Made by a program: the position numbers and the translations under genes. From Escherichia coli (GTDB lineage: Bacteria > Pseudomonadota > Gammaproteobacteria > Enterobacterales > Enterobacteriaceae): DNA of 64,000 nt. The stretch lies in the NCBI RefSeq assembly GCF_024298765.1, contig NZ_CP101210.1; one strand, written 5' to 3'. Below the pieces are notes generated by a model, which saw only the letters and a program-made list of their open reading frames with translations, was not told the DNA's origin and did no database searches. This document shows positions 43,262 through 50,844 of this stretch, one piece after another. Position 1 is the stretch's first letter, and each line of letters opens with the position of its first letter.

Positions 43262-44278
43262 ATGTCCACATTACGCCTGCTCATCTCTGACTCTTACGAC
43301 CCGTGGTTTAACCTGGCGGTGGAGGAGTGTATTTTTCGCCAGATGCCCGCCACGCAGCGCGTTCTGTTTCTCTGGCGCAATGCCGACACGGTAGTGATTG
43401 GTCGCGCGCAGAACCCGTGGAAAGAGTGTAATACCCGGCGGATGGAAGAAGATAACGTCCGCCTGGCGCGGCGCAGTAGCGGTGGCGGCGCGGTGTTCCA
43501 CGATCTCGGCAATACCTGCTTTACCTTTATGGCTGGCAAGCCGGAGTACGATAAAACCATCTCCACGTCGATTGTGCTCAATGCTCTGAACGCGCTCGGC
43601 GTCAGCGCCGAAGCGTCCGGACGTAACGATCTGGTGGTGAAAACCGCCGAAGGCGACCGCAAAGTCTCAGGCTCAGCCTATCGCGAAACCAAAGATCGCG
43701 GCTTCCATCACGGCACCTTGCTACTCAATGCCGACCTTAGCCGCCTGGCAAACTATCTCAATCCGGATAAAAAGAAACTGGCGGCGAAAGGCATTACCTC
43801 AGTGCGTTCCCGTGTGACCAATCTGACCGAATTGCTGCCGGGGATCACCCATGAGCAGATTTGCGAGGCCATAACCGAGGCCTTTTTCGCCCATTATGGC
43901 GAGCGCGTGGAAGCGGAAATCATCTCCCCGGACAAAACGCCAGACTTGCCAAACTTCGCCGAAACCTTTGCCCGCCAGAGTAGCTGGGAATGGAACTTCG
44001 GTCAGGCTCCGGCATTCTCGCATCTGCTGGATGAACGCTTTACCTGGGGCGGCGTGGAACTGCATTTCGACGTTGAAAAAGGCCATATCACCCGCGCCCA
44101 GGTGTTTACCGACAGCCTCAACCCCGCGCCGCTGGAAGCCCTCGCCGGGCGACTGCAAGGCTGTCTGTACCGCGCGGATATGCTGCAACAGGAGTGCGAA
44201 GCGCTGCTGGTTGACTTCCCGGAACAGGAAAAAGAGCTACGGGAGTTGTCAGCGTGGATGGCAGGGGCGGTAAGGTAA
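43262..44278 (+). CDS. lplA: lipoate-protein ligase A
   Basis: 338 aa [57 protein letters not shown]... Confidence 0.96.
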
Positions 44279-44309
44279 CTCGCTGATTAAAATATCCAGG
44301 GAAGGAAAT

Positions 44310-44573
44310 ATGATCGATCTGGAAAACCAGGAACGGGAGATTATCAATTTAATGTTCAGCCAGGGTATATCCTGGCTAACCGCCGTGCGTATCAGGCATA
44401 AATTATCGCTTGCTGAAGTAAGTAAAATGTTAGGTATCTCCATTAATTCTCTAAAACAGATCGAAAAGACGGAACGGCTTAGTTCAAACATCAAAAGCAA
44501 AATGGCAGGAATTTATGGTTGTCCACCAGAGTTGCTGATATGCCCTTCCTGGATGACGGCTGAACATAAATGA
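44310..44573 (+). CDS. small HTH (XRE-like) DNA-binding protein, uncharacterised
   Basis: 87 aa MIDLENQEREIINLMFSQGISWLTAVRIRHKLSLAEVSKMLGISINSLKQIEKTERLSS...; AGGAA RBS about 7 nt upstream of the ATG; HTH-like LSLAEVSKMLGISINSLKQIE. Confidence 0.6.
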   Translation: MIDLENQEREIINLMFSQGISWLTAVRIRHKLSLAEVSKMLGISINSLKQIEKTERLSSNIKSKMAGIYGCPPELLICPSWMTAEHK

Positions 44574-44603
44574 ATAGATTCGTGAATAGATACTTGAATG
44601 GAT
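44572..44603. repeat. tandem 9-mer TGAATAGAT repeated at 12-bp spacing (third copy TGAATGGAT)
   Basis: tgaatagattcgtgaatagatacttgaatggat read directly; an extra TGAATAGAT copy lies near 44660. Confidence 0.6.
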
Positions 44604-44675
44604 TTTATTTTCTATCCATATGAAAAATAATAGTAAATCTATAAATCAGTTGCTATTGATGAATAGATACTAAAA

Positions 44676-44701
44676 AGCCGGAGCAGTCTCCCGCTCCGGC
44701 T
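44676..44701. terminator. hairpin terminator downstream of deoD
   Basis: gccggagcagtctcccgctccggc perfect inverted repeat about 30 nt after the deoD stop. Confidence 0.55.
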
Positions 44702-44733
44702 TCACAAGGCAATCGCCTTTCAGCAAAACACAA

Positions 44734-45453
44734 TTACTCTTTATCGCCCAACAGAACGGATTCCAGTGCGATTTTGATCATGTCGTTGAAGGTGGTCTGA
44801 CGCTCAGCGGCAGTGGTCTGCTCGTGAGTGCGGATGTGGTCAGACACGGTGCAGATGGTCAGGGCTTTCGCGCCAAATTCTGCAGCGACGCCGTAGATGC
44901 CAGCGGCTTCCATTTCCACGCCGAGGATGCCGTATTTTTCCATCACGTCGAACATTTCGCCGTCCGGAGAGTAGAACAGGTCAGCGGAGAACAGGTTACC
45001 AACGCGAGCATCAACGCCCAGTGCTTTAGCCGCGTCTACCGCGTTACGCACCATGTCGAAGTCAGCGATAGCGGCAAAGTCATGGTCTTTAAAACGGATG
45101 CGGTTAACTTTGGAATCGGTGCAGGCACCCATACCGATAACGACGTCGCGCAGTTTTACGTGCGGCAGAACAGCGCCACAGGAACCAACGCGGATAATTT
45201 TCTTCACGCCGAAATCGGTGATCAGTTCTTTGGTGTAGATGGAGCAGGACGGGATACCCATACCGTGGCCCATTACGGAAATTTTGCGGCCTTTGTAAGT
45301 ACCGGTGAAGCCCAGCATACCGCGAACGTTGTTCACTTCACGGGCATCTTCAAGGAAAGTTTCAGCAATATACTTCGCACGCAGCGGGTCGCCTGGCATC
45401 AAAACTACGTCAGCGAAATCGCCCATTTCTGCATTAATGTGTGGGGTAGCCAT
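44734..45453 (-). CDS. deoD: purine nucleoside phosphorylase
   Basis: 239 aa [69 protein letters not shown]. Confidence 0.97.
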
Positions 45454-45464
45454 TGTTTTATCCT

Positions 45465-45530
45465 TATCAACATGTTTTCACCCTCTCCCTGTGGGAGAGG
45501 GCCGGGGTGAGGGCATCAAGCCGCACCCAT
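45465..45530. repeat. BoxC-like intergenic repeat
   Basis: caccctctccctgtgggagagggccggggtgagggcatcaagccgcaccc between deoD and deoB. Confidence 0.55.
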
Positions 45531-45532
45531 TA

Positions 45533-46777
<1,245 letters not shown>

Positions 46778-46807
46778 TCAAATTTAAATGATCAGATCAG
46801 TATACCG

Positions 46808-48130
46808 TTATTCGCTGATACGGCGATAGACAGTTGGTGTGCTTTCCGGTGCTTTATCGGCAAGTTTAATTGCCGCTTTCACCGCTTTCGCCGCTTCCTG
46901 CCAGCTGTTTTCGTCTTTCGCGTGGATAACTGCCAGCGGACGCTGACCGTCTACCTGGTCGCCCAGACGCGCCATATCAGTAAAGCCGACGCTGTAATCG
47001 ATGGTGTCAGATGCCTGACGGCGTCCGCCGCCCATTGCAACCACTGCCATCCCCAGCGCGCGGGTATCCATTTCACTGACAAACCCTTCGGTATCAGCAT
47101 AGACTGCTTTCGTCAGCATCGCTGTCGGCAGATACTTCGCGTAGTTCTCAACGAAGTCGGTCGGGCCTTTTTGTGCCGCTACCATACGACCAAAGACTTC
47201 TGCCGCTTTACCGTTGTCCAGCACCGCCTGCAATTTCGCGCGCGCTTCGGCGTCATCTTTCGCCAGTTTGCCGGAGATCAGCATCTCCACGCACAGTGCC
47301 ATCGTGACATCAAACAGACGCGGGTTACGATATTCACCCGTCAGGAACTGCACCGCTTCACGAACTTCAACCGCGTTACCTGCACTGGAGGCCAGTACCT
47401 GATTCATATCGGTGAGCAGCGCGGTGGTGCGCACGCCAGCGCCGTTAGCCACGCCAACAATCGCTTCGGCAAGGGCTTCAGAGAGTTCGTAGGTCGGCAT
47501 AAACGCGCCGCTACCTACTTTCACGTCCATCACCAGCGCGTCCAGACCTTCCGCCAGTTTCTTCGCCAGAATAGAGGCAGTGATCAGCGGGATGGAGTCC
47601 ACGGTTGCGGTAATATCACGGGTCGCGTAGAAACGTTTATCCGCCGGAGCCAGTGAGCTGGTCTGGCCGATAATCGCCACGCCGACGTCTTTAATAATTT
47701 CGCGGAAACGGTTGTCATCCGGGAAAATGTCGAAGCCAGGGATGGATTCCAGTTTGTCGAGCGTACCGCCAGTATGACCGAGGCCGCGACCGGAGATCAT
47801 CGGAATATAGCCGCCGCAGGCTGCGACCATCGGCCCCAACATCAGCGAAGTGACATCGCCGACGCCGCCGGTCGAGTGTTTATCAACAATCGGGCCATTC
47901 AGATGCAGGCTTTTCCAGTCGAGAACGGTTCCTGAATCTCGCATAGCCATGGTCAGCGAGACACGCTCAGGCATTGTCATATCGTGGAAGAAAATGGTCA
48001 TCGCGAGGGCGGCAATCTGCCCTTCGGAGATAGTGTTGTCGCGAATACCGTTGATAAAGAAACGAATTTCTTCATCGCTTAGCGCATGACCATCACGTTT
48101 TTTACGAATAATTTCTTGTGCGAGAAACAA
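46808..48130 (-). CDS. deoA: thymidine phosphorylase
   Basis: 440 aa [48 protein letters not shown]... Confidence 0.97.
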
Positions 48131-48164
48131 GGTAACCTCCCGAGGAAAAGAGTATGAGGCGGCT

Positions 48165-48245
48165 TTTGCCGGATGCGTCTACGCCTTATCCGGCCTACGG
48201 GTAGATACGTCTCGTAGGCCTGATAAGCGCAGCGCATCAGGCGTA
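48165..48245. repeat. REP elements (inverted pair) between deoA and deoC
   Basis: gccggatgcgtctacgccttatccggcctac ... gtaggcctgataagcgcagcgcatcaggcg. Confidence 0.8.
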
Positions 48246-48256
48246 AAGCATCTTAC

Positions 48257-49036
48257 TTAGTAGCTGCTGGCGCTCTTACCGTCACCGTGGCCCAGCGCTT
48301 TCAACAGGCTTGCCAGCAGGCTGGAAGCACCAAAGCGGTAGTGACGCGCATCTGCCCAGTCAGCACCGAACAGTTCATCTGCGATGGCGAGATATTTCTG
48401 CGCATCTTCCGCAGTACGCACGCCGCCCGCTGGTTTGAAACCAACGGTTTTTTCTACGCCCATATCACGGATCACTTCCATCATGATGCGCGCGCTTTCC
48501 GGCGTCGCGTTCACAGCCACTTTACCGGTAGAGGTTTTGATGAAGTCCGCACCCGCTTTGATGGAGATTTCAGACGCTTTACGGATCAGCGCTTCGTCTT
48601 TCAGTTCGCCGGTTTCGATGATCACTTTCAGCAGTACATTCGCTGCCGCGCAAGCCTCTTTACAGGCTTTCACCAGGTCAAAACCAACCTGCTCGTTACC
48701 CGCCATCAGCGCGCGGTACGGGAACACAACGTCAACTTCATCAGCACCGTAGGCGATTGCCGCACGGGTTTCTGCCAGCGCGATTTCGATGTCATCGTTA
48801 CCGTGTGGGAAGTTGGTTACCGTAGCGATTCGGATTTCCGGGGTGCCCTGCTCTTTCAGCGTTTTGCGAGCAATCGGGATAAAGCGAGGATAGATACAGA
48901 TAGCGGCGGTATTGCCGACCGGAGTTTTGGCCTGATGACACAGAGCAATTACTTTCTCGTCGGTGTCGTCGTCATTCAGGGTGGTCAGGTCCATCAATTT
49001 CAGTGCACGCAGGCTGCTTGCTTTCAGATCAGTCAT
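48257..49036 (-). CDS. deoC: deoxyribose-phosphate aldolase
   Basis: ORF 48257..49060; known start [29 protein letters not shown] at an internal ATG; 259 aa. Confidence 0.96.
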
Positions 49037-49293
49037 TTCATTCTCCTGGCTTGTCGCCAATAAAATTCACCTTGCGAGTTTGTTAGTATTCTAACATCTA
49101 CTCCGCAACACACTTCGATATACATCACAATTAAGGAAATCTACTTACAAGTTTGCATCACTGTAATGCGATCTGGTTCAAATAATTCACTTTCAAATGA
49201 ATGCGTCAGTGGTGGCAAACGCATCAGGATCAAAGTGAACATCACGAAACTTCTTACAATGGCGCATCACCTTCGGCATAAAAGGAAAAGAAG

Positions 49294-50844
49294 ATGCCCA
49301 CTTCTCATGAAAATGCACTGCAACAACGTTGCCAGCAAATTGTCACCAGCCCAGTGCTTAGCCCGGAGCAGAAGCGCCATTTTCTGGCTCTGGAAGCAGA
49401 AAACAATCTGCCTTATCCGCAGCTTCCTGCCGAAGCCCGCCGCGCGCTGGATGAGGGTGTAATCTGCGATATGTTTGAAGGTCATGCGCCGTACAAACCG
49501 CGCTATGTCTTACCCGATTACGCCCGTTTTCTGGCGAACGGTTCCGAATGGCTGGAGCTGGAAGGCGCGAAAGATCTTGATGATGCACTCTCTCTGCTGA
49601 CCATTCTTTACCACCACGTACCATCGGTCACATCGATGCCGGTCTACCTGGGGCAACTGGATGCGTTGTTGCAACCGTATGTTAGAATTCTAACACAAGA
49701 CGAGATCGATATTCGAATAAAACGTTTCTGGCGTTACCTCGACAGAACCCTGCCAGACGCCTTTATGCACGCCAATATCGGCCCGTCTGATTCGCCCATT
49801 ACCCGCGCGATCTTACGTGCAGACGCAGAGTTGAAGCAGGTTTCACCGAACCTGACCTTTATCTACGATCCTGAAATCACCCCTGATGACCTACTGCTGG
49901 AAGTGGCGAAGAACATCTGTGAATGTAGCAAACCGCACATCGCCAACGGTCCGGTGCATGATAAAATTTTCACAAAAGGGGGCTACGGGATTGTGAGCTG
50001 TTACAACTCACTGCCGCTGGCGGGTGGTGGCAGCACGCTGGTACGCCTTAACCTGAAAGCCATTGCCGAGCGCAGTGAATCGCTGGATGACTTCTTTACA
50101 CGCACTCTACCGCACTACTGCCAGCAGCAGATCGCCATCATCGATGCGCGGTGTGAATTCCTCTATCAACAATCACACTTCTTTGAGAATAGCTTCCTGG
50201 TGAAAGAAGGGCTGATTAACCCTGAACGTTTTGTGCCAATGTTTGGCATGTACGGATTGGCGGAAGCAGTTAACTTACTGTGTGAGAAAGAAGGAATTGT
50301 CGCACGTTACGGTAAAGAAGCCGCTGCAAATGAAGTGGGTTATCGCATCAGCGCGCAACTGGCGGAGTTTGTCGCCAATACCCCCGTGAAATATGGCTGG
50401 CAAAAACGCGCCATGCTACACGCACAGTCGGGGATCAGTTCCGATATTGGCACCACGCCGGGTGCACGCTTGCCGTATGGTGATGAGCCAGATCCGATCA
50501 CCCATCTGCAAACCGTCGCCCCGCATCATGCTTATTATTATTCCGGCATCAGCGACATTCTGACGCTCGACGAAACCATCAAACGTAATCCGCAGGCGCT
50601 GGTACAGCTTTGCCTCGGTGCCTTTAAAGCCGGAATGCGTGAATTTACCGCCAATGTCAGCGGTAACGATCTGGTTCGCGTTACCGGTTATATGGTGCGT
50701 TTGTCGGATTTAGAAAAATATCGCGCCGAAGGTTCACGCACCAACACCACCTGGCTGGGAGAAGAAGCCGCACGCAACACTCGTATTCTGGAACGCCAGC
50801 CGCGCGTGATAAGCCATGAACAGCAGATGCGCTTTAGTCAGTAA
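49294..50844 (+). CDS. yjjI: glycyl-radical-enzyme-like protein YjjI (DUF3029)
   Basis: 516 aa [44 protein letters not shown]... Confidence 0.88.

Follow-up and report, generated by a model that had tools for sequence, protein, structure and literature searches.

Dispersed palindromic repeats occur in the spacers between co-transcribed genes. REP elements reportedly act as mRNA stabilisers, as between malE and malF, and ERIC/IRU elements are said, from studies in Yersinia, to lie in intercistronic spacers. Another such repeat has been described as BoxC (Bergler 1992), as PIT elements (Hoyne and Maher) and as TMECO, three names for one repeat (Holder et al. 2015, PMC4666352). The TMECO consensus is CCCTCNCCC-N3-6-GGGNGAGGG-N3-GGGNGAGGG, optionally ending in [G/T/C/-], and a CCG second loop is what defines a type B TMECO (PMC4666352); for BoxC, a unit of 56 bp and an HMM of 50 nt have been given (Petrillo et al. 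2008). TMECOs show no positional or functional bias (Holder 2015, PMC4666352), and PIT elements, according to Hoyne & Maher 2002 as cited in PMC4666352, have neither promoter nor terminator activity and no effect on RNA polymerase.

Here we characterize a copy of this repeat in a window of E. coli DNA, by which we mean the whole stretch of 64,000 nucleotides that was analyzed. A sequence-only reading of the window had placed a BoxC-like repeat inside the deo operon, suggested that its palindrome could form a stable stem affecting the relative expression of deoB and deoD, and proposed comparisons with the BoxC consensus and with the K-12 spacer. The placement proved exact: deoD, deoB, deoA and deoC match their NCBIfam models far above the curated cut-offs, and the interval between the deoB stop codon (TGA, 45535-45533) and the deoD start codon (45453-45451, - strand) coincides with the proposed one (Table 1). 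The 50-nt string quoted in that reading is found at 45479-45528. It had also dismissed the peptides PCGRGPG and PVGEGRGEG as spurious; they are true translations of two + strand frames, and they are indeed artefacts because these frames are non-coding and antisense to the deo operon.

Table 1. Features of the deo operon and of the deoB-deoD spacer in the window.
Feature	Coordinates	Strand	Basis or value
deoB-deoD intercistronic spacer, part of deo mRNA (79 nt)	45454..45532	-	ORF coordinates, NCBIfam matches, sequence
deoD (purine-nucleoside phosphorylase), downstream of spacer	44734..45453	-	TIGR00107, 423.5 bits
deoB (phosphopentomutase), upstream of spacer	45533..46756	-	TIGR01696, 696.9 bits
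deoA	46808-48130	-	NCBIfam equivalog model
deoC	48257-49060	-	NCBIfam equivalog model
deoD Shine-Dalgarno AAGGA	45461..45465	-	allele alignment; unpaired in predicted folds
TMECO/PIT core, 34 nt, CCCTCTCCC-TGT-GGGAGAGGG-CCG-GGGTGAGGG-C	45481..45514	+	type B, 0 mismatches to consensus
Full BoxC unit: 5' GTTTTC, core, CATCAAGCCGCACCC	45474..45528	+	paralogue matches, 4-way alignment
Predicted hairpin 1 (mRNA), GCCCUCUCCC-ACA-GGGAGAGGGU, 10 pairs	45480..45502	-	-18.8 kcal/mol, z = -4.8
Predicted hairpin 2 (mRNA), GGGUGCGGC-UUGAU-GCCCUCACCC = GGGUG-C-GGC-UUGAU-GCC-CU-CACCC	45505..45528	-	-11.7 kcal/mol, z = -2.4

The proposed comparison with the published consensus yielded a match throughout the core, which is also letter-identical to MG1655 TMECO no. 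1 (hrpB-mrcB) and no. 4 (xynR-argF), both taken from Table 1 of PMC4666352 with their sequences re-extracted from NC_000913.3. Its palindrome, CCCTCTCCC/GGGAGAGGG (45481-45489 / 45493-45501), is 100% complementary around a 3-nt loop, and the + strand, which serves as template when deo is transcribed, is its G-rich (TMECO-sense) one. Paralogues found by megablast in 5426 complete E. coli genomes match window positions 45474-45526 (~53 nt) at 92-98%, and an alignment of four copies, with those from hrpB-mrcB, xynR-argF and phnE-phnD, has invariant columns from 45474 to 45524. The unit common to these four copies comprises GTTTTC, the core and CATCA..GCAC, and its length of ~51-53 nt is compatible with the BoxC unit of Petrillo et al. 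2008; copies of this subtype again have a terminal ACCC, 0-6 nt past GCAC/GCAG. The core occurs once in the 64-kb window (0 expected, from 100 shuffles), where strict and loose searches found no further BoxC copies, and E. coli genomes carry 1-4 near-identical copies of this subtype and 1-30 TMECOs overall. Rfam lacks a family for the repeat: a scan of 44000-50000 (E <= 10) gave no covariance-model match to the element at the gathering score, only a chance match to mir-320 (18.6 bits, E = 1.7), and the REP core (GCCGGATG...CTTATCCGGCCTAC-like) is absent from 45454-45532, a real BIME at 48131-48256 serving for comparison. The deoB-deoD element combines agreement with the consensus, identity with documented members, a unit of ~50-56 bp and a dispersed, multi-copy, intergenic and strain-variable distribution. 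Judged by these features of its sequence, it is essentially certain to be a type-B copy of the BoxC / PIT / TMECO dispersed enterobacterial repeat, as the sequence-only reading had supposed.

The copy had in fact been catalogued before. Strain IAI1 has the same 79-nt spacer, with deoB ending at 4,679,529 and deoD starting at 4,679,609, and from the geometry of the window we predicted its core at 4,679,548-4,679,581. TMECO 226 appears in Table S8 of Holder et al., on NC_011741 at 4679581-4679548, with the sequence CCCTCTCCCTGTGGGAGAGGGCCGGGGTGAGGGC, whose core is identical to that of the window. Since the predicted IAI1 core is TMECO 226, the element at deoB-deoD is already in the literature, as a coordinate only; the tables of the Holder 2015 supplement give coordinates only, and a search of the supplement by gene name gave no match. 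The element is an ordinary one of known kind, and nothing about it is different in kind from published BoxC.

Other copies of the repeat lie in comparable positions. Most of the 13 K-12 BoxC loci that we fetched are 10-55 nt past a stop codon according to the annotation tables. The pstA-pstB copy of K-12 is also intra-operon and has the orientation seen in deo, as does the phnE-phnD copy of strain FDAARGOS_1279; this agreement in three of three intra-operon cases (deo, pst, phn) comes from too few copies to carry meaning. The literature that we searched offered nothing useful on BoxC at pstA-pstB or on a deoB-deoD terminator. A pairing of GlnZ with deoD is described there; it is confined to Salmonella and falls within the first codons. 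Among 13 'plasmid' matches to the BoxC unit is the xynR-argF chromosomal segment on a 231-kb JM109 replicon (L003, 'plasmid unnamed1'), which is presumably an F' episome and not an association with a mobile element.

Comparison with K-12 produced a result that the sequence-only reading had not anticipated. The K-12 deoB-deoD spacer has no BoxC; it is 56 nt long and holds a private hairpin, GGGCGGAG-CGTTGA-CTCCGCCT (with a CTCCGCC arm), followed by TTGTTATG. The hairpin of K-12 and E. albertii looks like a terminator because of its T-rich tail, and the K-12 hairpin was flagged as terminator-like by the same scan that we ran on the BoxC allele; the K-12 spacer is predicted to fold at -18.4 kcal/mol. 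The AVS0196 allele and E. albertii likewise have a 56-nt spacer with the hairpin and TTGTTATG. Between the K-12 and window spacers only the deoB stop and AAGGATAAAACA-ATG are held in common, and the replaced segment measures 34 nt in K-12 versus 59 nt in the window. Because K-12, other lineages and E. albertii carry a hairpin at the very position of BoxC, the difference is best described as a replacement and not as a simple insertion beside the hairpin. The change is confined to the spacer, the coding flanks being 98-100% identical between BoxC and hairpin alleles.

Both alleles are common. The BoxC allele is present in 2488 of 5426 complete E. coli genomes (46%), including Rosetta2(DE3), NCTC86, O111 and IAI1, and hairpin alleles are present in the rest (54%), including K-12, O157:H7 and IAI39. 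The exact K-12 allele accounts for 1697 of the 5426 genomes, and the remainder have variant hairpin alleles, 755 of them of a diverged type (e.g. AVS0196). Given that the K-12 spacer holds a different hairpin, the presence or absence of BoxC at deoB-deoD is a common polymorphism. Both E. albertii and the GTDB representative of E. coli have the hairpin allele, from which we infer that in Escherichia the hairpin is most likely the ancestral state and BoxC the derived one. We asked whether the K-12 hairpin could be a degenerate form of hairpin 2 from BoxC and rejected this, as a position-by-position count gave ~50% identity between the two GC-rich stems.

Several further features of the surrounding DNA were recorded. 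The deoC-deoA spacer (48131-48256, - strand) contains a BIME composed of two inverted REPs, GCCTGATGCGCTGCGCTTATCAGGCCTAC and GTAGGCCGGATAAGGCGTAGACGCATCCGGC, whose RNA is predicted to fold at -55.3 kcal/mol (z = -4.85) and gives weak, sub-threshold Rfam matches to naRNA4; at -2.7 kcal/mol, the deoA-deoB spacer (46757-46807) counts as unstructured. With a BIME in deoC-deoA and BoxC in deoB-deoD, two palindromic repeat families occupy two spacers of one operon. A 10-bp hairpin, GGAAUAUGGC-AAA-GCCAUGUUCU, spans the final deoB codons up to the first base of the stop codon (45533-45558, - strand) and is predicted in BoxC and K-12 alleles alike. Beyond deoD, an intrinsic terminator private to E. 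coli lies 3' of the stop codon (GCCGGAGCGGGAGACTGCTCCGGCTTTTT, ~44672-44705 of the window), and the intergenic region between deoD and a helix-turn-helix ORF includes a short tandem repeat (TGAATAGATTCG x 2.8, 44571-44604). This ORF of 87 aa (44310-44573, + strand) is all that the window has in the lplA-deoD interval (44279-44733), the place where K-12 has hipH/yjjJ, a 1.3-kb HipA-family kinase toxin gene. The short lplA-deoD form, without hipH/yjjJ, is found in 4063 of 5426 E. coli genomes. A linkage between the BoxC allele and loss of hipH/yjjJ was rejected, given 4063 short-form versus 2488 BoxC genomes and the combination of the short form with the K-12 hairpin in strain 119.

As the G-rich strand of BoxC is the deo template, the C-rich complement is what appears in the deo mRNA. 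For the BoxC allele, the predicted fold of the spacer RNA has -32.1 kcal/mol (z = -3.5) and is made up of two hairpins, bearing out the expectation of a stable stem. Both hairpins are part of the MFE structure and reappear in the centroid when a 179-nt context is folded, and the deoD Shine-Dalgarno sequence (45465-45461), which the alignment places in BoxC and K-12 alleles alike, is unpaired together with the AUG in the predicted folds of both the spacer and the 179-nt context. In the predicted folds the third G block pairs with the downstream CACCC, which would make this 'third triplex block' an arm of an ordinary second hairpin, as seen by folding methods that model Watson-Crick hairpins only. 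Among 7 taxa, hairpin 1 is invariant, and hairpin 2 has 86% of its cells paired and one compensatory change, from G-C to A-U; covariation for the two-hairpin model is not significant in these 7 taxa, as 68 of 500 shuffles reach the level of this single compensatory pair. Within the BoxC allele, five other E. coli genomes have two variable positions, one in the loop of hairpin 1 and one in the single-stranded stretch before the Shine-Dalgarno sequence, both outside the stems. The terminator scan called no site at the BoxC element, where GGGAGAGGG is followed by UGAAAACAUG: of the two parts of an intrinsic (Rho-independent) terminator, the BoxC allele has the G+C-rich hairpin and lacks the U-tract.

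To place the two alleles in a wider context, we extracted the deoB-deoD spacers of 80 deoD loci obtained from one scan of GTDB species representatives, a set from which E. fergusonii, E. marmotae, E. ruysiae, Salmonella and Citrobacter koseri are absent. A strong local stem-loop is predicted in the spacer of 64 of the 80 enterobacterial species (median about -17 to -20 kcal/mol in a 36-nt window), and in the folded spacers it lies directly 3' of the deoB stop; the 16 species with no hairpin have short spacers and belong to Erwiniaceae and Pectobacteriaceae. What forms the stem-loop varies. Private GC-rich hairpins, several of the K-12 form ATTTGGGCGG...CCGCCC+T, are found in ~39 of the 80 spacers and REP/BIME in 13-14. 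ERIC or ERIC-like sequences are found in ~10, four of them with a match of at least 93% to the ERIC core and six, from Citrobacter and Kluyvera, with the ERIC ends and fold but a diverged core. BoxC is present in six, from Pseudocitrobacter faecalis, Phytobacter massiliensis, Leclercia adecarboxylata, two Enterobacter and strain RIT691 (five or six genera). All deoB-deoD copies of BoxC have the orientation seen in the window, and in the five species with a single unrearranged copy the alignment places the start of the unit ~3-8 nt after the deoB stop.

The spacers of P. faecalis and of the window agree at 72 of 79 positions, about equal to the identity of the coding flanks (90-94%). Outside BoxC, the window spacer mixes K-12-like with P. 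faecalis-like bases in a mosaic, and as judged from these sequences neither horizontal transfer nor vertical descent is favoured as the origin of the BoxC spacer. Some loci have more complex arrangements. Enterobacter cloacae DSM 26481 has one and a half tandem BoxC units in the spacer (L044, ~1372-1500), with hairpin 1 of the first unit truncated, and Leclercia (L039) has BoxC followed by REP in one deoB-deoD spacer. Extra BoxC copies directly downstream of the deoD stop, at the position of the private intrinsic terminator in E. coli, were found in Pseudocitrobacter, Buttiauxella, Enterobacter asburiae and Pantoea (L019, 2282-2313; L026, 2228-2260 and 2363-2394; L032, 2236-2267; L056, 2234-2266 and 2460-2494).

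On balance we lean slightly towards an explanation that joins the identity of the repeat, the replacement of the hairpin and a role as intercistronic stem-loop. In this explanation BoxC has taken the place of the probably ancestral private GC-rich, terminator-like hairpin in the deoB-deoD spacer and is transcribed within the deoCABD/deoBD mRNA, the C-rich strand in the RNA being predicted to form two adjacent hairpins. These hairpins may serve in place of the ancestral one, by holding back 3'-5' exonucleases or by marking a processing boundary, like REP in malE-malF; that particular substitution, proposed by analogy, we put at close to an even chance, just short of probable. BoxC would then be neither an efficient terminator nor a block to deoD translation, and if it differs from the K-12 allele the difference would be one of degree, with less termination, which is probable under this reading, and more read-through into deoD. 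The effect on the deoB/deoD expression ratio raised by the sequence-only reading is no more than a possibility: the stem has no U-tract after it, the deoD Shine-Dalgarno sequence and AUG are predicted to stay free, and tests of these elements reportedly showed neither promoter nor terminator activity (Hoyne & Maher 2002, as cited in PMC4666352). We counted in favour of a stem-loop role that a hairpin is the feature recurring across species (64/80), that BoxC has one orientation and position in six other species, that the two SNPs within the E. coli BoxC allele avoid the stems and that a BIME also lies between deoC and deoA. We counted against it the negative tests of PIT elements, the lack of positional or functional bias (Holder 2015), that about half of E. 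coli lack BoxC, that 16 species lack any hairpin and that the covariation is not significant. Repeats are also expected to accumulate in tolerant spacers without selection for a hairpin.

The last point leads to the main rival, that BoxC is a neutral passenger which landed or recombined into a palindrome-tolerant spacer with no measurable effect on deo expression, hairpins recurring at this site because such elements are tolerated in it. We regard this as possible without expecting it. It agrees with the negative promoter and terminator tests, as cited in PMC4666352, and with the lack of functional bias described there; a polymorphism split 46%/54% between nearly identical flanks, the filling of the same spacer by three unrelated repeat families in other genera and the non-significant covariation are all consistent with it. 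It sits less well with the ~39 of 80 species that have no dispersed repeat in the spacer and yet keep a private GC-rich hairpin there, several of them ATTTGGGCGG...CCGCCC, which suggests that the hairpin itself is maintained. A further reading is that the deoB-deoD spacer needs a stem-loop whose identity turns over, an ancestral private hairpin having been repeatedly replaced by BoxC, REP/BIME and ERIC, three unrelated families, and this we consider doubtful. If it were true, BoxC-type elements would home to existing hairpins or terminators and could substitute for them; as an alternative to homing, whole spacers would be exchanged between genera by very short-patch recombination.

Two other explanations are both less likely than a neutral passenger. 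An element acting at the level of DNA, whose G-rich strand adopts an intrastrand triplex of the purine motif while the DNA is replicated or transcribed and so causes local instability and polymorphism, would draw on the stable triplexes that type-B TMECO oligonucleotides (CCG second loop) form in vitro by CD and NMR and on the greater variability of TMECO loci relative to control loci (PMC4666352), and the deoB-deoD locus is indeed polymorphic. We judge it improbable: DMS footprinting saw no triplex in duplex DNA or in vivo (PMC4666352), the change between alleles stops at the edges of the spacer, the third G block is predicted to be taken up by an ordinary hairpin with CACCC, and polymorphism does not of itself amount to a function. 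RNA does not form purine-motif triplexes, and the C-rich strand would require acid pH (Holder et al., PMC4666352). More improbable still is that BoxC is a partial transcription terminator, an attenuator setting the deoD:deoB ratio. A 10-bp G+C-rich stem directly between the two cistrons, at the place where the K-12 allele resembles an intrinsic terminator, would suit such a role, but GGGAGAGGG runs into UGAAAACAUG without a U-tract, the scan was negative, and PIT elements are reported to lack terminator activity (Hoyne & Maher 2002, in the citation of PMC4666352).

The BoxC copy at deoB-deoD has little weight for biology at large and bears on annotation. The + strand ORFs called over 45454-45532 are artefacts. 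For about half of E. coli, K-12 cannot validly serve as the reference for the deoB-deoD spacer. The B/BL21 lineage belongs to this half, since the genome of Rosetta2(DE3) is a 100% match to the window. Were read-through or mRNA stability to differ between the alleles, deoD dosage might not be the same in all common laboratory strains. The locus would also offer, some 30 years on from the description of the repeat, a convenient natural test case for the role of BoxC in a transcript.

Set beside known systems, the locus has both familiar and distinct features. The hairpin of K-12 and E. albertii resembles the BoxC allele in its position a few nt past the deoB stop, its stable GC-rich stem-loop and the same free Shine-Dalgarno sequence; it differs in being single-copy and not dispersed, in a spacer 23 nt shorter and in having one hairpin in place of two. 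ERIC/IRU shares with BoxC the intercistronic insertion in an operon, filling the deoB-deoD spacer in ~10 species, and differs as an unrelated family of imperfect palindromes of ~127 nt. REP/BIME in operons (malE-malF, and deoC-deoA here) are likewise transcribed intercistronic palindromes with the same proposed mode of action, a decay barrier; they have no sequence similarity to BoxC, and REPs have a RAYT transposase partner and the ligands IHF, gyrase and Pol I, with none known for BoxC. The closest system is the published repeat itself (BoxC/PIT/TMECO; Bergler 1992; Bachellier 1999; Hoyne 2000, 2002; Holder 2015), with the same core, the same flanking GTTTTC and CATCA..GCAC, and the same intergenic, strain-variable distribution. 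The published TMECO tables are without the identity of the deoB-deoD site, the replacement of a terminator-like hairpin and the occurrence of BoxC at the same site in other genera, and what the present analysis adds to that record is the gene-level context, the allele frequency and an apparent multi-genus turnover of hairpins at this spacer.
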